In this document: piece after piece, positions 2,041 through 58,762 of the stretch | Position numbering within the stretch: position 1 is the stretch's first letter | Layout: each line of letters begins with the position of its first letter | Source: a virus | Lineage: Duplodnaviria; Heunggongvirae; Uroviricota; Caudoviricetes | Reading direction: 5' to 3' (one strand) | DNA: 64,000 nt | Virus record (IMG/VR): IMGVR_UViG_3300029288_004479 | Translations under genes and position numbers: made by a program | Notes under the pieces: generated by a model | What the model was told of the DNA's origin: nothing | Seen by the model: only the letters and a program-made list of their open reading frames with translations | Database searches by the model: none

Positions 2041-2247
2041 ATGATTGATTGGAAATTCTGGTGTACGGTAATTGGAGCAGCGTGTGTAATTTACACCGTT
2101 GAATGATTTTGGGTGATTCCGGTAGTGTTTAAGGTTGAAGGCTCCAAGATCGTCACACCGTTTGTAATATCAACGATCTTCGCGTTTTTTGTTGGTCTGA
2201 TTGTAGTATATCCGGACAAACTTTATGAACTCTTTGAGAGGAACTGA
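2041..2247 (+). pseudogene. tandem paralog 3 interrupted by in-frame TGA (2104-2106) at a position aligned to TGG/Trp of paralog 2
   Basis: First 59 nt are near-identical to 1835-1893; the reading frame continues through TGA to the conserved VVYPDK C-terminus. Confidence 0.45.
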
Positions 2248-3752: not shown

Positions 3753-4142
3753 ATGGAGTATAAACATTCCAAAAACAAAGTGTTCCTAATGAACTATCAT
3801 TTAGTTTGGTGTCCGAAACGTAGGAAACCCGTTCTTGTTGATACGGTCAAGGAACGACTTGACCAGATAGTTCGTGAGGTCTGTAAAGAGAGGCAAGTAG
3901 ATATTCTGGCAATGGAGATAATGCCAGACCATATTCATTTATTCTTGTCAACGAACCCGGATATGCCAATTCAGGATGTGATACGGGTCATCAAGGGGAG
4001 AAGTTCTAACCATCTCCGGAAAGAGTTTCCCGACCTCTTGAAGTTGCCATCGTTGTGGACACACTCGTATTTCATCTCAACAGCAGGAAATGTTTGTTCT
4101 GAGACTATCCGAAGATATATTGAGGAGCAGAGTACTCAATGA
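3753..4142 (+). CDS. tnpA: IS200-type Y1 (HUH) transposase TnpA
   Basis: HIHLF HuH motif; YHLVWCPKRRK N-terminal block; ~130 aa. Confidence 0.85.
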   Translation: MEYKHSKNKVFLMNYHLVWCPKRRKPVLVDTVKERLDQIVREVCKERQVDILAMEIMPDHIHLFLSTNPDMPIQDVIRVIKGRSSNHLRKEFPDLLKLPSLWTHSYFISTAGNVCSETIRRYIEEQSTQ

Positions 4143-5317
4143 TTAACGTCACCCGGTATCGAGTATATCCCACGAGGGAACAAGCAGACACGATATTCAG
4201 ACAGTTTGGACTGTGTACTGATCTGAGAAACAAGTGTCTGGATACCGGAAATTTTGACGTTCGACAACTCCCAAACTTCAAGAAAGAAACACCGGAACTA
4301 AAAGAAGTTCATAGTGTAGTTTTGCAGAATATGATGTTCCAGATAAAAGAGAACATTAAAACGCTGTCGAAACTGAAAAAGAAAGGTTTTCGTGTAGGTA
4401 AACTCCGGCACAAACCGGTCAGGTCGCTCATCTACGAGCAGACAGGGTATAAGTTCATCGGGAACCGGTTGTCGTTGAGCAAGGTTGGTAACCTGCGTAT
4501 TTCGATCTCGCGGTCAATACCGGGCGTCGTGAAACAGATAGTTTTGAAGTTCACTAAGACCCACAAGTGGTTCGTGTCGGTGATATCGAGAACGACCGAT
4601 GAACCGGTGAAGTGTGAGAGTACCCGAATCGTGGGTATTGACATGAACCTGATAGTATTCTCGCACGACAGTGACAATCACACCAAACAGCATCCGCATA
4701 ATGTTAGAAACGCTTTGAGACAGTTAAGCAGAGCACAGCGCAAGATGAGTCGGAAAGTCAAGGGTAGTCATAACCGTAGGAAACAGAGGGTAATAGTTGC
4801 CCGAGTCCATGAAACGGTACAAAACCGTCGAGATGATTTCCTGCACAAGTGGAGTACCAAGTATGTATATCAAAGTAACTATTCCGGGATTGCGGTCGAG
4901 AAGTTGAATATCAGGGATATGATAAAATATAATATGGATATGCAGGATAAGAAGAAGCGTCGATCTAAAAACCGCAATACTTTTGATGCAGCGTGGTTCA
5001 AGGCGAGAACGTTTCTCCAATACAAGGCTGAAAGAGCTGGTATTGACTTCAGGGTAGTTGATCCTGCATATACCACACAAACCTGTTCAAAGTGCGGTCA
5101 CCGACAAAAGATGGACGAAAGTATAAGAACATATATTTGTCCGGTCTGTGGGATGACAACAAACAGGGATCTGAACGCCGCTATTAATATTAAAAAGAGG
5201 GCGTTCGGTGTAGGGTTGGTGACACCCGAATCCAAGCTTGTGGAGATTGATACCTCTATTCCGAACAGCGACTCGGAACAAGTATCGACCAATGAAACAA
5301 GAATCCCCTGCCTTTAG
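4139..5317 (+). CDS. tnpB: TnpB (OrfB) RuvC-like RNA-guided nuclease of IS605 family
   Basis: C-terminal CSKCG...CPVCG zinc finger; typical OrfB length and layout. Confidence 0.85.
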   Translation: MINVTRYRVYPTREQADTIFRQFGLCTDLRNKCLDTGNFDVRQLPNFKKETPELKEVHSVVLQNMMFQIKENIKTLSKLKKKGFRVGKLRHKPVRSLIYEQTGYKFIGNRLSLSKVGNLRISISRSIPGVVKQIVLKFTKTHKWFVSVISRTTDEPVKCESTRIVGIDMNLIVFSHDSDNHTKQHPHNVRNALRQLSRAQRKMSRKVKGSHNRRKQRVIVARVHETVQNRRDDFLHKWSTKYVYQSNYSGIAVEKLNIRDMIKYNMDMQDKKKRRSKNRNTFDAAWFKARTFLQYKAERAGIDFRVVDPAYTTQTCSKCGHRQKMDESIRTYICPVCGMTTNRDLNAAINIKKRAFGVGLVTPESKLVEIDTSIPNSDSEQVSTNETRIPCL

Positions 5318-9228: not shown

Positions 9229-10193
9229 AACCTTAAATACTTAAACTTCCCATATCTTTTCGTCCACACATAGGTGTGTCAGATAGATTTATGCACATGC
9301 ATAAACTTCAGGCACACCAACCCGTGGGACACATCCTTTAATTTTAGTTAAATCCAAAAAAGTCTATCAGACGGTAACTATGTTTTTTAGTGCATTGTTT
9401 TTACTGGTTCCGTGTCCCACAAGTGAAAATTATATTTCTGTATATACAGAATCAAAAGTTGCTAAAATCGTGCAGTAGATGCAAAAGGCACCTATGAACT
9501 TACAAACACTTCAGACGAGAAATGCAAAAAGATCTATTATAATCTAAAAACGGCATTTCGCGCATACATATACAGATTTAAAAAAATGTTGTCATTCACC
9601 GTATATTTTCTTAACAAACGATGTAAACATTAATATCTCCTAAAGATAATAGGGGATACAATGAAAAAAGATCTTGAATCTGTAATAAATGATTTGAGGG
9701 GGTCTGCAATATCCAAATGCAAGGAGCGAATAGCAGAGGCAAAGAAGACTGGTATTAAGAAACGTGAACCGGAAAAAGGGATTACATCGGTCTTAAAAAG
9801 TAAATATTTATAGTAACTAGATAAAATATATAAACCAACACAGCATATCCTGAGATTGTGAACCGCAATGTCGAGAACAAGACGTATCTACAACGATGCA
9901 AAGAAATGGCTTCACGGAAAACTTCCATTACCTGTTGTAAGCAGCGAATGGGCAACAATGGAATATTACACAAGGAAATACGATCCGTTTAGGCAGTACA
10001 AACATTTTAGATGTCACTGCGACTCGTGGTGTCGCCCAAAGACAAATCAAATCGGTTCTTTAAGGGAACAACGGAAAAAATATATTCGCATGGAACTTAT
10101 GAATATTTAATGATCCGAGTAAAGTGCATGGAGTGTGGAGTTTCCATACCTCCGTTCACTATAGTAAAACACATAATGGGGCAACCTGTCTGT

Positions 10194-11749
10194 GAGGAAT
10201 GTTATAGATGAGGCAGCAAGAAAACCCCTGTTTTAAAACGGGGGATGAATTGTGTTAATCTATTTTTGTAAAAGTATATAACGTTAAAAAACAAATATAT
10301 GGTGTGGTAATGCAAACGGTATCGATCTATGCACGGCTTACCAAGAAACAGTTTCAAATAGTGGATACGTTAAGTTACCTGTCGAAGAACCTGTATAACG
10401 TCGGGGTGTATAACGCCCGACAGCATTACCACGAGATCCAGTTAGCGGGTTTAAGTAACCTTCGTCCGGATTTGATCAGTCTGTGGATGGATACGAAAAA
10501 GACATATTTACCGTATTCACGCGGGAAAGATAACCCGTATAAGGATTACAGTAATTATAATCGGTCGAAACAGAACGAGAATTACGGATTACTTCATTCG
10601 CAAGCAGCACAACAGACCCTTAAATCCGTTGAAGAGGGGTATATTAGTTTCTTCGGGTTAATAAAACTAAAAACGAGTGACAACGAGGATAATCCAGTGC
10701 GTCCTCCTCATTACCTCGATACCGAACACGGTCGGTATAAAGTGGCGTTTCCACGGAACAGTCTATCAATAAAAAAGAAAGGTGTCACTCTCGGAATGTC
10801 AGTTAAATTCAAGAAACTTCACGGATATACCGGGAAGGAACTGACATTCAAGATCCCGTCGTATCTAAAACCGCACCAGATCCGGGAAGTCACATTGTTA
10901 CCCATCCACGGTGGGAAATGCTATAAACTCTCGTTCAGTTACGAGATAAAAAGTATAAATAAGCCGGAGTTAAACCCCGACAAATACCTTGGTATCGACT
11001 TAGGCGTAAACAACTTTGCGGCACTTATCGAGAACGCTACCGGGACTGCCACTCTGTTAGATGGCAAGTATCTAAAATCACTGAACCGGTGGTATAACAA
11101 GACCAACGCAAAGTTACAGAGCGTCAAAGACAAACAGGGTATCTCGGGAATAACCAATCGTCAACACCGAATGCTTATAAAAAGAGAGAACCGTATCAGC
11201 GAAGCGATTAACCGATACGTAAACTTCGTGATCGACTACGCGATCAGATACAAGATAGGAAACATCGTATGTTTACGATGGGACGGCATCAAGCAGAACC
11301 GCAAAGCTTCCAAAAAAGGTAACCAGAACTTTGTTCAGATACCCTACGATATGTTCCGCACCCGTCTCGAAAACAAATGCAACCTATACGGCATCAAGTA
11401 CCACGGGAAAGACAGCGAAGCATACACGTCACGAACCGACGCTCTCGCATACGACGAGATCAAAGCGCAACCATACGGTAAATCACGCCGTATTAAACGC
11501 GGTCTGTATAAAAGCATTACCGGGGTAATCTTAAACGCTGATATTGTTGGTTCAATGAACCAGATCCGCAAAGTAGCTGGCGACGCTCCTGTAAAGGAAA
11601 TAGCTAGTAGTGGCCGTTTCAACCGGCCTGTGAGAATAAGGTTGGCTTTCGAGCCGGCAAACTTCTCCAAAGTAATTAGAACGAGATGTGTTGTTCACCA
11701 GAACGACCTCCCGCTCAATCCTCCCGTTTTAACGGGAGGTAGTTGAATT
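10194..11749 (+). mobile_element. IS200/IS605-family tnpB-only element (IS1341-type)
   Basis: LE hairpin CCCCTGTTTTAAAACGGGGG at ~10217; RE hairpin CCTCCCGTTTTAACGGGAGG at ~11720; both ends are repeated at 54483-54810. Confidence 0.8.
10310..11746 (+). CDS. tnpB: TnpB RNA-guided nuclease
   Basis: OrfB-like N-terminus; 3' end overlaps the RE/omega-RNA scaffold region. Confidence 0.85.
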   Translation: MQTVSIYARLTKKQFQIVDTLSYLSKNLYNVGVYNARQHYHEIQLAGLSNLRPDLISLWMDTKKTYLPYSRGKDNPYKDYSNYNRSKQNENYGLLHSQAAQQTLKSVEEGYISFFGLIKLKTSDNEDNPVRPPHYLDTEHGRYKVAFPRNSLSIKKKGVTLGMSVKFKKLHGYTGKELTFKIPSYLKPHQIREVTLLPIHGGKCYKLSFSYEIKSINKPELNPDKYLGIDLGVNNFAALIENATGTATLLDGKYLKSLNRWYNKTNAKLQSVKDKQGISGITNRQHRMLIKRENRISEAINRYVNFVIDYAIRYKIGNIVCLRWDGIKQNRKASKKGNQNFVQIPYDMFRTRLENKCNLYGIKYHGKDSEAYTSRTDALAYDEIKAQPYGKSRRIKRGLYKSITGVILNADIVGSMNQIRKVAGDAPVKEIASSGRFNRPVRIRLAFEPANFSKVIRTRCVVHQNDLPLNPPVLTGGS

Positions 11750-11975
11750 CAAACGGCTGGGAGAAGTAATTGAAAAGCACCCAATTGGAGTGCATGCCGT
11801 GGAAACATCGTTTCCATATGATGTAAAGGAATAAGGGGTATTCAGTAATGACAAAACTACTCAAGTTATCTTATGTGAGAATGATCCGTGGAAAAAAGGA
11901 ATGTGCTGAATTGGAAAAACAAATTGAAAAAGACTTTAAACATAAAAAAATAATTAAATTATAATACAATATTGT

Positions 11976-12064
11976 GCGCACGTAGGAAAGCGGATTATTC
12001 CACCGGACTTCTATCGTAAAAGGAAGATATCCGGATATCGTGGGTTCAAATCCCATCGTGCGCG
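11976..12064 (+). tRNA. tRNA-Arg(UCU) with 15-nt canonical-position intron (12014-12028)
   Basis: Acceptor GCGCACG/CGTGCGC; T-arm GTGGGTTCAAATCCCAT; anticodon CUUCUA pairs with intron GAAG (BHB). Confidence 0.75.
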
Positions 12065-12301
12065 TGCGCCCGGAACGGAAGCATCGAACGCATCCTTAAC
12101 TAAGATGCGGGGTAAATACCAGATGTATGACCGGAACAGATTGGGGCTATCCTAATCGAGGGGTTTAAGTCCCCGATCTGTGGCGTAGGCACTTCGGTGC
12201 CATAATAATAGAAGAACAGTGCGCTCGTAGTCTAGCCCGGACAAGGCTCCAGATTCCTAATCTGTTTGTCATGGGTTCAAATCCCCTCGGGATCGTTTAT
12301 T

Positions 12302-17798: not shown

Positions 17799-17871
17799 GG
17801 GTTTGTAGCATAGTAACAAGTGCGTTCGCCTCCAAAGCGAAAAGGCGAGGGTGCAATTCCCTTCAAGCCCA
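17799..17871 (+). tRNA. tRNA-Trp(CCA) with atypical T-loop (UGCAAUU, G at position 55)
   Basis: Acceptor GGGTTTG/CAAGCCC; D-stem GCAT/GTGC; anticodon arm TTCGC-CTCCAAA-GCGAA. Confidence 0.65.
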
Positions 17872-18638: not shown

Positions 18639-18773
18639 ATGGAATCAAGGTTTACAGCAACGGGCGGAGAATATTTGGGCACGTCCCAAGTCACCGCAGA
18701 TCAAAAGGCGTCGGCAGAGAGCACAAAAGAGTACTTAAAGAACGGTCTCTACAAAGAACGCAACAAGAATTGA
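18639..18773 (+). CDS. 44-codon ORF in frame with downstream aRF1, separated only by TGA (18771-18773)
   Basis: ATG start; same frame as the aRF1 core. Confidence 0.4.
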   Translation: MESRFTATGGEYLGTSQVTADQKASAESTKEYLKNGLYKERNKN

Positions 18774-19853
18774 CAGGTTTACTCTTCTCAGGTCTCTGCA
18801 TTAGCGGAGAAGTCCGGTAACGGCACAGAACTTATTTCATTGTATATCCCCGGAACGAAACGGGTCGATGATATCACTCAAAGATTACGGGACGAACATT
18901 GTTCATGTGGCAATATCAAAAGTAAACAGACCAGAACAAACGTCCAGAAAGCGTTATCAGCAATAATCGCACGGTTATCTGGAGGTATCAAAACCTTCCC
19001 GGAAAACGGTATAATAATCTATTGTGGGGAAGTCGCGTTAGATCGTGGCGATAAAACCGAGTTCGAATATTATACATTCACACCGCCGCAACCGGTAAAA
19101 TCGTTTAGTTACAAATGTGACGCCAAGTTCGATACGGGTGACGCGCTCGCGCTCGCATCTGAAAAAGATACATATGCATTAATTGTGTTGGATCTACAGG
19201 AAGCGTGTTGGGGGACGCTTGAAGGATCAGCAATTCATGTTATGGGAACTTATGATTCAATCGTGCCGAACAAGCACGGACAAGGGGGGCAATCACAACA
19301 CAGGTTTGAACAATTAAGGCAGATTGCAATCAATGAATATTTTATAAAACTCTCGGAACGTGTTAACACATCGTTCCTCCCCTTGCTTGAGAAAAGCGTT
19401 CTCAAAGGCATTCTAATCGGCGGGTGTGGTATGACGAAAGACGAGTTCGTGAAAAGCGAGCATATGCACCACGAGTTACGGAAGGTTATTATTGGCACGT
19501 TTGACACGTCATATACTAACGAATATGGGTTAACAGAACTGGTCGAAGCATCGAAGAACAACCTGAAAGATATCGGGTTACGCGATGAGAAGATAGCATT
19601 CGACGAGTTCCTGAAAGAGTTGGCACGCGAATCTGGGAAAGTTGCATATGGAGTATCGGAAGTTCTACACAAAGCCGAGATCGGGCAGGTCAAGCGGGTG
19701 TTATTATCAACGTCTCGTGTTAACTTATATGATCAGATTGAGGAGAAAAACACTACTAATTATCAATTAGTATTAATCTCAAAAGATTCCGATAGCGGGT
19801 CGATGCTCGACAAAGGGTTCGGTGGGATTGTGGCGGTGTTGAGGTATGGATAG
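18774..19853 (+). CDS. prf1: archaeal peptide chain release factor aRF1 (domains 1-3), with no canonical start codon downstream of the in-frame TGA
   Basis: GNGTELISLYIP, NIKS, YxCxxxF (YKCDAKF) and GGQ (HGQGGQSQHRF) motifs; the first ATG/GTG/TTG in frame is TTG at 18840, inside the conserved domain. Confidence 0.8.
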   Translation, partial: QVYSSQVSALAEKSGNGTELISLYIPGTKRVDDITQRLRDEHCSCGNIKSKQTRTNVQKALSAIIARLSGGIKTFPENGIIIYCGEVALDRGDKTEFEYYTFTPPQPVKSFSYKCDAKFDTGDALALASEKDTYALIVLDLQEACWGTLEGSAIHVMGTYDSIVPNKHGQGGQSQHRFEQLRQIAINEYFIKLSERVNTSFLPLLEKSVLKGILIGGCGMTKDEFVKSEHMHHELRKVIIGTFDTSYTNEYGLTELVEASKNNLKDIGLRDEKIAFDEFLKELARESGKVAYGVSEVLHKAEIGQVKRVLLSTSRVNLYDQIEEKNTTNYQLVLISKDSDSGSMLDKGFGGIVAVLRYG

Positions 19854-29018: not shown

Positions 29019-29265
29019 ATTAAAAGAACCCGAATGCATAAGATATATATACTATCCAGTTCAACCAGAGTATACCAAATATAGTTAGGTGTAAAGAAAT
29101 GACTTACAATGTAAATTCAACAGTAAGGGCAACACACCTAGCAACCGCTGTCAAGGGAATTGGGAGCGAAGGCTCTTTTATTGAGATAGTTACTGTAAGA
29201 AACTAATGATATTGTTTCCGGTCATTAGTTTCTAAATATACGATAACGGAAACGAAAATATGATT

Positions 29266-29364
29266 GCTCCCGTAGTGTAGTGGCAATCATGTGAGACCTT
29301 CAAGAAAACAAGTGGTTAATTTCGAGGAAATCTCACGATATGGGTTCGAATCCCGTCGGGAGCA
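29266..29364 (+). tRNA. tRNA-Glu(UUC) with 27-nt canonical intron (29303-29329); C at position 33
   Basis: Textbook hBHBh' motif (TGAGA/TCTCA, CCTT/GAGG, AAA bulge); mature anticodon loop CCUUCAA. Confidence 0.7.
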
Positions 29365-29367
29365 TAT

Positions 29368-29438
29368 GCATCCTTGATCCAGAGGCAAGATACCAGCTTG
29401 ACATGCTGGAAACACAGGTTCGATCCCTGTAGGATGCA
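29368..29438 (+). tRNA. tRNA-Val(GAC)
   Basis: Acceptor GCATCCT/AGGATGC; anticodon loop TTGACAT; T-loop TTCGATC. Confidence 0.8.
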
Positions 29439-29441
29439 TGG

Positions 29442-29512
29442 GCACTCTTGATCTATAGGTATGATTTCTGGTCGCCAGCCAGAGAGAACGGGTTCGAATC
29501 CCGTAGAGTGCA
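29442..29512 (+). tRNA. tRNA-Gly(GCC); C at position 33
   Basis: Acceptor GCACTCT/AGAGTGC; anticodon arm TCTGG-TCGCCAG-CCAGA; T-arm ACGGGTTCGAATCCCGT. Confidence 0.7.
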
Positions 29513-29536
29513 TCCCCAAAAAGAGGGAAAACAAAT

Positions 29537-29782
29537 ATGACCGTAGATGAAACGTTAGATCGATTAGAACGAATAGGCACGCGGAAATCGTTTGTATATC
29601 ACGAAGATGTCTTGAAATTCGTCGATAGTGAACGAAATAAAGATCCAGAGATGCCGTATGGTAAGAAGCGGATGTTAGAGGATATCGAAACAGACGTTAT
29701 AACTCATATGGGTAATGGTAGAAAAACTATCCGGAACGAAGAGTTACGGGGTATAATTATACGCCAAAGAAGTTATCAATAA
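29537..29782 (+). CDS. hypothetical protein embedded in tRNA array
   Basis: 81 aa ORF; GAGGG SD upstream. Confidence 0.4.
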   Translation: MTVDETLDRLERIGTRKSFVYHEDVLKFVDSERNKDPEMPYGKKRMLEDIETDVITHMGNGRKTIRNEELRGIIIRQRSYQ

Positions 29783-29853
29783 GCTTCCGGAGTCTGTCGG
29801 AATGATGCATCGTTCTCGGCGATGCGGAATGGGTTCAATTCCCATCGGAAGTA
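29783..29853 (+). tRNA. tRNA-Glu(CUC)
   Basis: Anticodon arm CATCG-TTCTCGG-CGATG; T-arm ATGGGTTCAATTCCCAT. Confidence 0.75.
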
Positions 29854-29855
29854 TT

Positions 29856-29928
29856 GGGACAGTAGATCAGTTGGGAGATCGCTACACCGAAGATGTAGTC
29901 GTCACCGGTTCGAATCCGGTCTGTCCCG
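29856..29928 (+). tRNA. tRNA-Phe(GAA); C at position 33
   Basis: Acceptor GGGACAG/CTGTCCC; D-stem GATC/GATC; anticodon arm CTACA-CCGAAGA-TGTAG. Confidence 0.8.
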
Positions 29929-30108
29929 TCTCCTGTGGGAGAAATCTGCCATCAGTGGCGTGGCGTGGGCCTTAGGTTACATCAACCGAACGATCTAAAC
30001 GCTGGTACAGGTGAAATGGACGATCATTCAAGGCCAGTTACGGTCATCGAAATCCACGGGGTGCGACTCGTTCTAACACCTCAAAGAAACCCACCACAGG
30101 AGTTAATT

Positions 30109-30180
30109 GCGCTCGTAGCAGAGTGGTAATGCGGCAGGCTCTTAACCTGAAGATCGTGCGTTCGATCCGCACCGGGCGCA
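30109..30180 (+). tRNA. tRNA-Lys(CUU)
   Basis: Acceptor GCGCTCG/CGGGCGC; anticodon loop CTCTTAA; T-arm GTGCGTTCGATCCGCAC. Confidence 0.75.
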
Positions 30181-30252
30181 TTCCCCAAAAAAGGAGTATA
30201 AAATGTAAAAACCAGAGGATATAAATGTAAAGGCAACCAACAAGGATATGTT

Positions 30253-30323
30253 GCGACGATGATCTAACGGTATGATCCTACCCTTCCAAGGTAGAGGCCC
30301 GGGTTCAATTCCCGGTCGTCGCA
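30253..30323 (+). tRNA. tRNA-Gly(UCC)
   Basis: Acceptor GCGACGA/TCGTCGC; anticodon arm CTACC-CTTCCAA-GGTAG. Confidence 0.8.
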
Positions 30324-30397
30324 TGTCCCGTAGCACAGTCCGGTAGTGCGGCGTTCTTATAAGGCGTATGTCATGGGTTCGATCCCCATCGGGACAA
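30324..30397 (+). tRNA. tRNA-Ile(UAU); anticodon stem has three G-U pairs
   Basis: Acceptor TGTCCCG/CGGGACA; D-stem GCAC/GTGC; anticodon loop CTTATAA. Confidence 0.6.
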
Positions 30398-30400
30398 CTA

Positions 30401-30475
30401 GGGCGAGTAGCATAGTCCGGCTAATGCGTCAGTCTGATAAGCTGAAGACCGCAGATTCAAATTCTGCCTCGCCCA
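30401..30475 (+). tRNA. tRNA-Ile(GAU)
   Basis: Acceptor GGGCGAG/CTCGCCC; anticodon arm TCAGT-CTGATAA-GCTGA. Confidence 0.8.
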
Positions 30476-30599
30476 TTTCATTGAGTTTTTTCAAAACGAA
30501 ACAAAATTAGACCATTTTGTTGACGCTAACAAAATGGTAATACAATACAACCATCGAGTTAAAGAAATCTATTTATATCCTTATCCCGTATAACTACTT

Positions 30600-31076
30600 A
30601 TGAAAATGTCATATATAATAATTTTAAGTTGTATTCTATTGGCTGGATTAGCAGTAATGCCGGTATCAGCATTTACAGCGAATACACTTGATTTTAAAAT
30701 CGATGAAAAAGGTGATGCACAGGTTGTGATGACCTATTCTCTGAATGCAATTGAGAGTGGTGCAATAGTTGCAAAAGGTGTAGGGTCAGTGGGTGTAGTT
30801 CAGGCACTTGTGGACGAATCGTTACCATATTCGGCAAAGGTAAAAACGGTCGAGTTGGGTAAGGCAACAATGACGATTCCGGGTTTTGCAACGGGGAATG
30901 CGGGTATAAAGACCACAAAAGAATTCTCAATGCAACCAGCGCAGGACAAAGCAAGTAAATATTGGTTTGAGTTCGGCAGTAACTTCGCTCCAAAAGAGAC
31001 TACAATAACGTTTGAAAATGGTAAAGTATATACGTATAAAAATCAAATGCGTATCCCAACAACTTCAAACACATAA
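30600..31076 (+). CDS. secreted protein with signal peptide
   Basis: N-terminal hydrophobic segment followed by AVMPVSAF. Confidence 0.45.
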   Translation: MKMSYIIILSCILLAGLAVMPVSAFTANTLDFKIDEKGDAQVVMTYSLNAIESGAIVAKGVGSVGVVQALVDESLPYSAKVKTVELGKATMTIPGFATGNAGIKTTKEFSMQPAQDKASKYWFEFGSNFAPKETTITFENGKVYTYKNQMRIPTTSNT

Positions 31077-31081
31077 TTTTC

Positions 31082-31155
31082 CCGTCAGTGTCAGAGCGGC
31101 TAACGAGACCGGCTGTAGACCGGTTAAATCGCAGGTTCAAATCCTGCCTGACGGA
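31082..31155 (+). tRNA. tRNA-Tyr(GUA); D-arm weakly paired
   Basis: Acceptor CCGTCAG/CTGACGG; anticodon arm ACCGG-CTGTAGA-CCGGT; T-arm GCAGGTTCAAATCCTGC. Confidence 0.65.
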
Positions 31156-38913: not shown

Positions 38914-39331
38914 AAGTTTACATTACTAATGTATAAAGTTATTTATTTGACGGTTAAATTACAACAATTAAAAACTGGAGAAGAATCACATGACAACGTA
39001 TCTTCAATGTAAAAAATGTGGGTATAAATTTGCAGTCTCAACAACGGCGTATTTAGCCGGGGTTGTTAACTGTCCACGATGTGGTGTGCCACATGCAGAC
39101 AAGTATTCGAATGAGAGTAATAATAGAAATATCCACTAAAACAAGGATTGAAACACCCTCATCTTGATTTCTAATTCCCCCGAATCCGGAGGAATTAAAA
39201 AAAAGAAAGAATAAGGATTAGATTCTGTTAAGTTCATATTAATATCATACAAACAAATAAAACAGAAATCAGATCATCATTATAAAGAAAAAACATATAT
39301 AGAATGATGCAAGATTATATTCAGGTGAAAT

Positions 39332-42055: not shown

Positions 42056-42129
42056 GCACCCGTAGCGAAGTTGGTTATCGCGTCGGTTTTACATGCCGAA
42101 GACCGTCGGTTCGAACCCGACTGGGTGCA
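42056..42129 (+). tRNA. tRNA-Val(UAC)
   Basis: Acceptor GCACCCG/TGGGTGC; D-stem GCGA/TCGC; anticodon arm TCGGT-TTTACAT-GCCGA. Confidence 0.8.
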
Positions 42130-42210
42130 TCAGAGGATAGATTCGGGGATAATGCTCCGTAAGGATAAGTCTTTATCATTCCGGCTATCCGCTGTAGAAA
42201 AACAACACGA

Positions 42211-42339
42211 GGGTTGGTATCTCAGTTGGTAGAGAGTCCGGCTGTTACAAGAGAGAATAAAAGATTGTGTGATTCATGATTTTGACCCCTCTCTCTTGCA
42301 GAAACCGGAATGTCAAGAGTTCGAGCCTCTTCCGACCCG
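42211..42339 (+). tRNA. tRNA-Asn(GUU) with 56-nt canonical intron (42248-42303)
   Basis: Perfect hBHBh' (CTGT/GCAG, TAC and AAA bulges, 7-bp h'); acceptor GGGTTGG/CCGACCC. Confidence 0.8.
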
Positions 42340-42360
42340 TATTTTTGATGAGGTAGGATC

Positions 42361-42564
42361 ATGAAAAAGGTAACATACGGAATCCAATATTGCAACAGCT
42401 TATGTCCCTATTTCTTCAGGAACTACGACGACGGAGATAATATCTGGTGTGCGAAGATCCGAAAGAAAATATATGATTACGACGGGGGAATGATCTTTGG
42501 TGATCGGGCGTATCGAGACATTCCGAAAGAATGCCCATTAGAAAACTGTCCGGAAAAACAATGA
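42361..42564 (+). CDS. hypothetical Cys-containing protein
   Basis: GGTAGG SD upstream. Confidence 0.4.
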   Translation: MKKVTYGIQYCNSLCPYFFRNYDDGDNIWCAKIRKKIYDYDGGMIFGDRAYRDIPKECPLENCPEKQ

Positions 42565-42634
42565 GATTATACGAACCTTCACTTATTTTGTGCAAAAATA
42601 TAAATCTGCAAACAGCAAATAACGTATAAAGAGT

Positions 42635-42719
42635 AACGGGGTGGGGTAGTCAGGATAACCCGCTAGACCCATAATCTAGAGACCTCACGGCTTGCGAAGG
42701 TTCGAATCCTTCCCCCGTT
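42635..42719 (+). tRNA. tRNA with CAU anticodon (Met or Ile2 type); C at position 33; 16-nt variable region (possible non-canonical intron)
   Basis: Acceptor AACGGGG/CCCCGTT; D-stem GGGT/ACCC; anticodon arm CTAGA-CCCATAA-TCTAG; T-arm GAAGGTTCGAATCCTTC. Confidence 0.6.
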
Positions 42720-42739
42720 ATATAAGTTTTGGAGTTGTA

Positions 42740-58144: not shown

Positions 58145-58762
58145 ATGAAACTTAAGTATGTTTTAGGAGCCTTTTTTGTTCTGCTTGCACTTGTTGCAGT
58201 AGCACCGGTCTCTGCGGTCTTCAACGACCAGACCATTGCAAATCAGAACTCAGGTGTCTTTAGTTACCAGATCATCCACGCAGGTCAGACTGGTGCGTTC
58301 AACGACCAACAGGCTCTTGACAAGAACAGTGGACTTTTCAATGAGCAGGTTATTGATGTAGCCCAGATGGGATTCAGCAACGACCAGAATGTTTACAATG
58401 ACAACACTGGACTCTTCAATGAGCAAGACCTTGATGCAAACCAGATGGGATCGTTCAACACCCAGCAGGTTGCAAACACCAACACCGGTCTCTTCAACGA
58501 GCAGGATGTAACAGTATTCCAGAACGGTGCATTCAATGAGCAGACCGCTGTTAACACCAACACTGGTGCATTCAACGAGCAGTCAATCTTTGCAACCCAG
58601 AACGGTGCATTCAACGATCAGGATGTCTACAACACCAACAACGGCGCATTCAGCGAGCAGAGTATTGTAGCAGTCCAGAACGGATTCAACAACGACCAGT
58701 ACGTTGCAAACACCAACACCGGTGCATTCAGCGAACAGGTTATTGATGCAAATCAGGGATAA
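58145..58762 (+). CDS. secreted tandem-repeat protein (~16 repeats of an 11-residue unit with consensus NTGAFNEQxV)
   Basis: Signal peptide; periodic FN(D/E)Q repeats. Confidence 0.5.
   Translation: MKLKYVLGAFFVLLALVAVAPVSAVFNDQTIANQNSGVFSYQIIHAGQTGAFNDQQALDKNSGLFNEQVIDVAQMGFSNDQNVYNDNTGLFNEQDLDANQMGSFNTQQVANTNTGLFNEQDVTVFQNGAFNEQTAVNTNTGAFNEQSIFATQNGAFNDQDVYNTNNGAFSEQSIVAVQNGFNNDQYVANTNTGAFSEQVIDANQG

Follow-up and report, generated by a model that had tools for sequence, protein, structure and literature searches.

The window analysed here is a 64,000-nucleotide stretch of DNA, assigned to a large extrachromosomal element or virus of archaea from methanogenic habitats, in which a class-I translation release factor gene (aRF1) is interrupted near its 5′ end by an in-frame UGA. 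The features relevant to this gene are listed below.

18639..18770 (+), start codon (ATG 18639) and 44-codon N-terminal leader of the aRF1 reading frame
18768..18776 (+), putative recoding site AAT TGA CAG, in which the in-frame UGA (18771-18773) has U immediately 5′ and C immediately 3′
18774..19853 (+), body of the aRF1 gene: helix alpha-1, GNGTELISLYIP (18816-18851), NIKS (18912-18923), YKCDAKF (19110-19130), GGQ (19284-19292) and stop TAG (19851-19853)
17799..17871 (+), element-encoded tRNA-Trp (anticodon CCA), the candidate near-cognate decoder of the UGA (an inferred role)
2041..2247 (+), third tandem copy of a small membrane-protein gene with an in-frame TGA at 2104-2106, which is a possible second readthrough site or a decayed copy

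An interrupted aRF1 gene

The initial annotation noted that this aRF1 has no usable start codon of its own and is joined in frame to an upstream ORF through a single TGA, and each of its statements about the sequence was confirmed. The frame stays open from 18774 to the TAG, and the first ATG, GTG or TTG after the TGA is TTG 18840, which lies inside GNGTELISLYIP and thus inside the conserved fold. The Pfam domains eRF1_1, eRF1_2 and eRF1_3 were all detected above their curated cut-offs (E = 1.7e-13, 1e-36 and 3.5e-14, respectively), and the PDB aRF1 structures 4af1 and 3agk matched at E = 5e-65 and 6e-61. The motifs GNGTE (residues 60-64), NIKS (92-95), YKCDAKF (158-164) and GGQ (216-218) are intact, as is E-x5-NIKS, and Y158, C160, F164, G216, G217 and Q218 are invariant in the alignments, which fits a factor that can read UGA. 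The closest cellular relatives are euryarchaeal aRF1 from Methanomicrobia and Methanosarcinia at about 40% identity.

The "upstream ORF" of the initial annotation is simply the N-terminus of the gene. In relatives this leader is 8-31 codons long (8-26 in most) and ends in a conserved acidic peptide, (P)EED(G/E)N, read in the same frame as aRF1. The second in-frame TGA, at 2104-2106, was also confirmed and aligns to Trp. However, the "otherwise intact paralog" in which it was noted is not an aRF1 but the third of three tandem copies of a small two-helix membrane protein (ATG 1582, 1835 and 2041). The comparison IYTVE[TGA]FWVIP against IYTVMWFFVLP and CVVLWCYVFP places the TGA at a Trp conserved in the other two copies, and identity continues to the C-terminal VYPDK motif, although the context is GAA TGA T rather than UGA-C.

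The nature of the element was investigated by Pfam and PHROGs scans of 79 ORFs, which gave methyltransferases, transposases, an RNA ligase, ParB, radical SAM and similar, but no capsid, portal or terminase. Few tandem repeats were found, so there is no Borg-like signature, and a bacterial-type promoter and terminator scan was uninformative for an archaeal element.

Conservation and context of the in-frame UGA

The region, TGA included, is base-for-base identical in three independent assemblies. Moreover, all 14 loci of a distinct aRF1 clade, which share 50-82% amino-acid identity, carry TGA at this exact codon, 14 codons before GNGTEL. The median pS across the clade is 0.80, i.e., synonymous sites are saturated, and the closest pairs have pN/pS of 0.19-0.25, showing that the downstream frame is under purifying selection. 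The other conserved Trp (CWG) is encoded by TGG, and no other in-frame stop occurs in 354-359 codons, although two clade loci do carry extra lesions, a frameshift in L175 and an in-frame TAA in L013 (L-numbers denote individual aRF1 loci). In contrast, none of about 150 cellular aRF1 genes has this TGA; all 80 from GTDB genomes and all of the roughly 70 from metagenomes have a normal ATG or GTG start and no interrupting stop. This distribution is far more than chance. No clade member occurs in 185,579 species genomes, GTDB genomes hold none, IMG/VR holds no member of the window clade, and no hit was found in 50,697 GenBank phage or archaeal-virus records, while plasmid hits are haloarchaeal prf1 paralogues at 31% identity with normal starts.

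The codon preceding the TGA is AAT in 13 of 14 loci and never AAC, although AAT:AAC usage in the window is 427:412. The next base is C in 13 of 14 (the following codon being CAG in 6, CTA in 7 and AAT in 1). This weak UGA-C context occurs at only 2 of 29 genuine TGA stops in the window, both of which are backed by another in-frame stop 1 and 7 codons later. UGA-CUA, present in 7 of 14 loci, is the type II viral readthrough motif (UGA followed by CUA or CGG; alphaviruses, PSIV) tabulated in PMC13517186, whereas the window itself has UGA-CAG. Those viral signals make C-terminal extensions of polymerases, while here the readthrough would be needed for the whole protein, and they usually have an extended stem-loop 2-16 nt downstream. 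Single-sequence folds suggested a pyrimidine/purine hairpin about 20 nt downstream of the UGA in most sequences. However, alignment tests did not support it (67% of cells paired, against 64% in a control slid by 2 columns; RNAalifold − 2.5 kcal/mol), and it may only reflect Ser/Leu codons facing Lys/Glu codons.

The TGA is not explained by a change of genetic code. ORF statistics under alternative stop sets, stop usage and the list of TGA-joined ORF pairs all show ordinary TGA termination: TGA ends 29 of 83 + strand genes, many gene junctions overlap by 4 nt, and the window has 213 TGG codons against only two in-frame TGAs in 64 kb. The other same-frame junctions (14815, 37448 and 38554) have their own start codons 2-9 codons later. 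ARAGORN, run with and without introns, found no tRNA with anticodon UCA among the 91 tRNA genes in the window and 15 related loci. The element tRNA-Trp, found by ARAGORN and Rfam, has a standard 5-bp anticodon stem and C11-G24, so it is not Hirsh-like. Nevertheless, gene callers translated three clade members with table 4 and printed W at the TGA.

A second, distant clade of virus-borne aRF1 genes shows a different arrangement in the same part of the gene. Five of five N-truncated members (L004, L005 and L171-L173), one of which (L005) lies next to a baseplate gene, place the ATG in the − 1 frame and run into CUU-UGA-C, CUU-UAG-C or UUU-UAG-C, i.e., the prfB-type + 1 frameshift motif, with aRF1 continuing in + 1. 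A search for more loci of this clade in IMG/VR returned only the query itself.

Proposed readthrough mechanism and alternatives

These observations lead to the proposal, held with moderate confidence, that codon 45 of this gene is a programmed UGA readthrough site. Ribosomes would start at the ATG, translate a short leader (44 codons here, about 8 in most relatives) and then meet UGA in the weak context U-UGA-C. If release-factor activity in the cell, host plus element, is ample, the ribosome terminates and only a short peptide is made; if it is limiting, a near-cognate tRNA, most likely the element-encoded tRNA-Trp(CCA), decodes the UGA and full-length aRF1 is made. Output of the factor would thus be coupled inversely to termination capacity, in agreement with the prfB logic suggested by the initial annotation. 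However, useful readthrough in the host, insertion of Trp, recognition of UGA by the encoded aRF1 and the homeostatic character of the loop are all inferred. The UGA column is one residue out of register with the conserved aromatic of cellular aRF1 (Tyr) and human eRF1 (Trp15), and homology therefore does not fix the inserted residue. In addition, the host aRF1 also acts on this UGA, so the loop would sense total rather than self-specific factor activity, and its benefit to the element is conjecture.

An alternative that is less likely but not excluded, and was already raised in the initial annotation, is gating by a suppression state rather than homeostasis. In this view, UGA is decoded as Trp efficiently only at a particular stage, for example when element-encoded tRNA-Trp is abundant or host aRF1 is disabled, and the UGA acts as a timer or switch for aRF1 and perhaps a few other UGA-containing genes, in the manner of stage-specific stop-codon recoding in phages. 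The tRNA-Trp gene lies about 770 nt upstream of aRF1, and a tRNA-Trp also lies within about 400 nt of aRF1 in L007 and L012. The L012 copy has a 4-bp anticodon stem with a C27·C43 mismatch, a feature linked to UGA reading by tRNA-Trp in other organisms (PMC13092985), and the TGA at a conserved Trp in the gene at 2041-2247 hints that UGA suppression may be more general in this system. However, the scarcity of in-frame TGAs, the absence of a tRNA(UCA) in the loci scanned, the ordinary 5-bp anticodon stems of the tRNA-Trp copies of the window and L007, and the intact stop-recognition motifs of the aRF1 argue against it, and the use of UAG as well as UGA in the frameshift clade points to sensing of termination in general. 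A more speculative and improbable extension is that these elements run a conditional genetic code, in which UGA is read as Trp by element-encoded tRNA-Trp during carriage or infection, and the element aRF1, made only once that state is reached and with altered stop-codon preference, takes over termination, so that a subset of genes with in-frame UGA (aRF1, the small membrane protein at 2041-2247 and others elsewhere in the genome) is expressed only late. This would be the archaeal counterpart of stage-specific recoding in phages, achieved without a suppressor tRNA.

It is also unlikely that the short upstream frame is a regulatory uORF, with the aRF1 product starting downstream at a non-canonical codon or by reinitiation. 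The leader is short (8 codons) in most loci, as in many uORFs, and TTG 18840 exists in the window. However, no ATG, GTG or TTG is conserved between the TGA and GNGTEL in L007, L008, L010 and L012, and TTG 18840 lies inside the first beta-strand, so that starting there would delete helix alpha-1 and the GNGTE loop that takes part in codon recognition. In an AlphaFold model of a relative, P0008 (mean pLDDT 85), the UGA-encoded residue lies inside helix 4-20 of the N domain. Furthermore, the two frames are the same in 13 of 14 loci (in L175 the frame changes between the TGA and GNGTEL) and the spacing to GNGTEL is constant, neither of which is required by reinitiation.

Insertion of selenocysteine or another special residue by a dedicated machinery is very doubtful. 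UGA is the Sec codon, and archaeal Sec insertion uses signals outside the coding region that are easy to miss, but no tRNA-Sec and no SECIS family hit was found in the window (with Rfam coverage of archaeal SECIS being uncertain), the position is in a helix at the edge of the N domain rather than a redox site, and the lineages of the closest cellular relatives probably lack the Sec system. Finally, although TGG to TGA is a single transition, a recent pseudogene or a sequencing or assembly error is refuted by the identical assemblies and by TGA in 14 of 14 loci, with no TGG, at saturated synonymous divergence.

Relation to known release-factor recoding

The statement in the initial annotation that such regulation is not described for aRF1 needs qualifying. 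The eRF1/aRF1-type factors of Mimivirus (R726) and Megavirus (mg280) carry a conserved in-frame UGA followed by C in the 5′ part of the gene, which must be read through; insertion of Trp from a virus-encoded tRNA-Trp was proposed, and the arrangement was interpreted as prfB-like autoregulation (Jeudy et al. 2012, PMC3521657). However, R726 needs two events, the readthrough and then a + 1 frameshift at CUU-UAG-C, whereas the window gene needs only the readthrough, and in archaeal elements the frameshift occurs alone, in a separate clade. The hosts are Archaea rather than amoebae, and the sequences are unrelated beyond family level. The authors stated that such recoding was known only in bacteria and these viruses. 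In bacterial prfB (RF2), a release-factor gene is likewise interrupted early by a stop codon that the factor itself reads, UGA followed by C, so that expression rises when termination is slow, and the exact CUU-UGA-C motif occurs in L004. In contrast, the window gene stays in frame, its preceding codon is AAU, no internal Shine-Dalgarno stimulator was seen, the protein families (RF1/RF2 versus eRF1/aRF1) are unrelated, and aRF1 is expected to read all three stops, so the sensor would not be codon-specific. Literature searches on aRF1 recoding and on aRF1 in archaeal viruses found no prior description, and a further search on "aRF1, Borg" was swamped by ADP-ribosylation factor papers.

The arrangement would be the first programmed stop-codon readthrough in Archaea that is not selenocysteine or pyrrolysine; a 2021 review of archaeal recoding lists only those two and − 1 frameshifting (PMC8211752). 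It also exposes a systematic annotation error, as every database entry for this clade is either N-terminally truncated or translated with table 4. The compact, conserved cis-element of about 10 nt (AAU-UGA-C) could serve as a sensor of termination capacity. Self-limiting recoding of release-factor genes would then have arisen at least three times on unrelated scaffolds, i.e., bacterial RF2, giant-virus eRF1-like factors and two clades of archaeal-element aRF1, one by readthrough and one by + 1 frameshift, which would make it a general design principle rather than an oddity. Because the aRF1 sits inside tRNA arrays next to an RNA ligase gene, these large archaeal elements would carry a regulated translation module, which bears on how they cope with host shut-off or tRNA-targeting defences.

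Anatomy of the aRF1 locus and its surroundings

On the + strand, an ATG at 18639 opens a reading frame that runs for 44 sense codons before it meets a TGA, after which the same frame continues without interruption to a TAG. The part after the TGA is a complete class-I release factor of the archaeal/eukaryotic type, in which Pfam eRF1_1, eRF1_2 and eRF1_3 all pass their cut-offs and which solved aRF1 structures match at E = 5e-65 and 6e-61. The elements of this frame are as follows:

18639, + strand: ATG, followed by 44 sense codons
18771-18773, + strand: in-frame TGA
18816-18851, + strand: GNGTELISLYIP motif
18840, + strand: TTG, the first ATG, GTG or TTG after the TGA, inside the first conserved strand
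18912-18923, + strand: NIKS motif
19110-19130, + strand: YKCDAKF motif
19284-19292, + strand: GGQ motif
19851-19853, + strand: TAG stop codon

The description in the initial annotation, in which the aRF1 gene lacks a usable start codon and is in frame with an upstream 44-codon ORF through a single TGA, is therefore exact. The same 4 kb, TGA included, is base-for-base identical in two independent assemblies, and the 222 bases spanning the TGA are identical in a third (SRR18595300, SRR8542065, SRR22315506), showing that this is not a sequencing artefact.

The window is 39% G+C, and almost all genes are on the + strand. It contains 16 tRNA genes, several with introns, as well as an AglB oligosaccharyltransferase fragment, two TnpB-type genes, an IS200 transposase, a protein kinase, adenylosuccinate synthetase, an RNA ligase, DNA methyltransferases, ParB and a radical-SAM enzyme. 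However, no capsid, portal or terminase was recognised, and tandem repeats are few. The features located in these surroundings are as follows:

1582-2247: three tandem paralogues of a small two-helix membrane protein (ATG 1582, 1835, 2041), the third with an in-frame TGA at 2104-2106
4139-5317 and 10304-11746: two TnpB/IS605-family genes (OrfB_IS605 plus the Cas12f1-like TNB domain), with an IS200-type Y1 transposase elsewhere in the window
11975-12296, 17799-17871, 29265-31155 and 42056-42721: tRNA genes, with tRNA-Trp(CCA) at 17799-17871
39118-39154: a single CRISPR repeat (Rfam CRISPR-DR7, 45.8 bits) with no second copy nearby, followed by a hairpin and an A-run, a solitary repeat unit of the kind reported on mobile elements
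58454-58745: a 78-nt imperfect tandem repeat (3.7 copies, 71% matches) inside ORF 58145-58762, encoding a repetitive Asn/Gln-rich protein segment

TGA is a normal terminator here. Of 83 + strand ORFs, 29 end in TGA, 45 in TAA and 9 in TAG, and many gene junctions overlap by 4 nt. In addition, there are 213 TGG codons and no tRNA with anticodon UCA was found, and the element therefore does not use a TGA = Trp code. A second in-frame TGA (2104-2106) was nevertheless observed in the third of the small membrane-protein paralogues, at a Trp that is conserved in the other two copies and with homology continuing after it; it is either a second readthrough site or a decayed copy. No homologue was found among the other loci collected.

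Conservation of the TGA in a distinct aRF1 clade

A protein search found a distinct clade of about 30 clusters at 50-86% identity, which is set apart from cellular aRF1, whose best matches are about 40-46% identical (Methanomicrobiales, Methanosarcina and other Halobacteriota), and which lacks the cysteine-rich insertion that the cellular factors carry in domain 3. Every public protein entry for this clade (entries P0001-P0031, and those of loci L087-L089) is mis-annotated. Nearly all are N-terminally truncated at a downstream ATG, TTG or GTG, even on contigs of 25-220 kb, whereas three are full length and show Trp at the position of the window's TGA. Retrieval of the underlying DNA revealed that the Trp in those three entries is a TGA which the gene caller had translated with table 4, and that the same column is TGA in every other locus whose 5′ end is on the contig. 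In total, 14 of 14 independent loci (the window and the clade loci L001, L007-L012, L087-L089 and L174-L176) have TGA exactly 14 codons before GNGTEL. The leader before the TGA varies in length from 8 to 44 codons and ends in a conserved acidic peptide (MxPEEDGN, DDTEEN, TEDGN) read in the aRF1 frame. Two clade members carry extra lesions, namely a frameshift between the TGA and GNGTEL, in an A-rich run, in L175 (about 870-960) and an in-frame TAA at a Tyr codon in L013 (about 430), which are either assembly errors on short contigs or real decay.

In all of these loci with flanking sequence, the gene sits in or next to arrays of tRNA genes, several with introns (in the window; at 30-951 and 2408-2649 in L008, 277-8753 in L012 and 1140-2794 in L174), which, together with the RNA ligase encoded in the window, look like a translation module. 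The window shares several other genes with L001. An odd tRNA lies about 220 nt upstream of the aRF1 gene in L001 (9651-9727, − strand), which ARAGORN calls either Trp(CCA) with a poor anticodon stem or Thr(CGT) with a 3-nt intron, and whose arm can also form an 8-bp stem with a 6-nt loop.

Among the 13 clean loci, amino-acid identity is 50-82% (median 58%), the median proportion of synonymous differences is 0.80, i.e., saturated, the median proportion of non-synonymous differences is 0.29, and the closest pairs have pN/pS of 0.19-0.25. Thus, the downstream frame is under purifying selection, and a neutral codon would not have stayed TGA in all lineages. If TGA and TGG were interchangeable, a mixture would be expected; instead, this column is always TGA, and the other conserved Trp (CWG) is always TGG. 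The controls were clean, in that about 70 cellular aRF1 genes from metagenomes and 80 of 80 from GTDB genomes have an ordinary ATG or GTG about 20-26 codons before G-x-GTEL and no interrupting stop. In addition, the clade is absent from 185,579 species genomes, from GenBank phage and archaeal-virus records and from IMG/VR.

Context of the site and the encoded residue

The base after the TGA is C in 13 of 14 loci, and the next codon is CAG in 6, CTA in 7 and AAT in 1. In contrast, the next base at genuine TGA stops of the window is A in 16, T in 7, G in 4 and C in 2, and both of these UGA-C stops are backed by another in-frame stop 1 and 7 codons on. The codon before the TGA is AAT in 13 of 14 loci and never AAC, although the window uses AAT and AAC equally (427:412). 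UGA-C is the leaky context discussed for Mimivirus, and UGA-CUA is the type II viral readthrough motif. A pyrimidine/purine hairpin about 20 nt downstream can be drawn in most sequences. However, it is only 67% paired, against 64% for a slid control, and RNAalifold finds nothing there; this hairpin is treated as unsupported, although it is not excluded.

An AlphaFold model of relative P0008 (mean pLDDT 85) puts the UGA-encoded residue inside helix 4-20, the first helix of the N domain. HMMER aligns this residue with Trp15 of human eRF1, but the alignment needs a one-residue gap, since the clade position is −15 when counted from GNGT, while the conserved aromatic of cellular aRF1 (Tyr) and eRF1 (Trp) is at −14. 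Homology therefore makes an aromatic plausible but does not fix it. Trp is the best guess, as tRNA-Trp(CCA) is the usual near-cognate reader of UGA, the element encodes one, and the second in-frame TGA of the window also falls on a conserved Trp.

A second aRF1 clade and the proposed termination-sensing logic

Two IMG/VR contigs (L004 and L005) carry a distant aRF1, 34-35% identical to that of the window, and in L005 a baseplate J gene lies immediately upstream of it. This aRF1 has no start codon in its own frame. Instead, the ATG is in the −1 frame, and after 8-10 codons it runs into TGT CTT TGA C (L004, about 9950-9990) or TGT CTT TAG C (L005, about 9976-10010), where a +1 slip joins it to the aRF1 frame. 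Three further members from other samples (L171-L173) show the same layout just upstream of the called aRF1 genes, with TTT TAG C, which makes 5 of 5 N-truncated members, although other members of that clade have ordinary in-frame starts. CUU-UGA-C is the prfB frameshift motif, and CUU-UAG-C is that of Mimivirus R726. Frameshifting at a stop codon is by its nature a race against the release factor. Two unrelated clades of element-borne aRF1 place a stop codon in the first turns of helix alpha-1, one to be read through and one to be slipped past, which is the strongest argument that both sense termination efficiency.

These observations lead us to conclude, with high confidence, that the window gene is a single aRF1 frame with a programmed UGA readthrough site. 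With more moderate confidence, we propose that the site most likely couples synthesis of the factor inversely to termination capacity, as in prfB and R726. The rate of readthrough, the inserted residue and the benefit to the element are inferred, as is the reading of UGA by this aRF1, whose recognition motifs are intact. Because the host factor also acts on the UGA, the circuit would measure total release-factor activity, and a reasonable reading is that the element makes its own factor only when the host supply becomes limiting, which fits the neighbouring tRNA arrays and the RNA ligase elsewhere in the window.

Alternatively, expression may be gated by a UGA-suppression state, which is possible but less likely. 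The second TGA favours this reading, as does the tRNA-Trp(CCA) of L012 (5530-5605), which has only four Watson-Crick pairs in the anticodon stem (C27·C43 mismatch), a feature linked elsewhere to UGA reading by tRNA-Trp; the window and L007 copies, however, have five pairs. The use of UAG by the frameshift clade and the scarcity of in-frame TGAs argue against it. A uORF with downstream non-canonical initiation is improbable, and selenocysteine is more improbable still. A pseudogene or an error is refuted.

The nearest precedent is the Mimivirus and Megavirus release factor, for which a UGA-C readthrough and a +1 frameshift were established in an eRF1/aRF1-type gene, and Trp insertion and prfB-like feedback were proposed (PMC3521657). 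The window gene shares the readthrough but not the frameshift, and it belongs to a different lineage and to the archaeal world. A 2021 review of archaeal recoding lists only Sec and Pyl readthrough and −1 frameshifting, and no description of aRF1 recoding or of aRF1 genes in archaeal viruses was found in the literature searched, although this coverage was incomplete and the result is absence of evidence only. The finding is therefore not categorically new. It does, however, correct a systematic mis-annotation, and it would generalise a regulatory principle across three domains.
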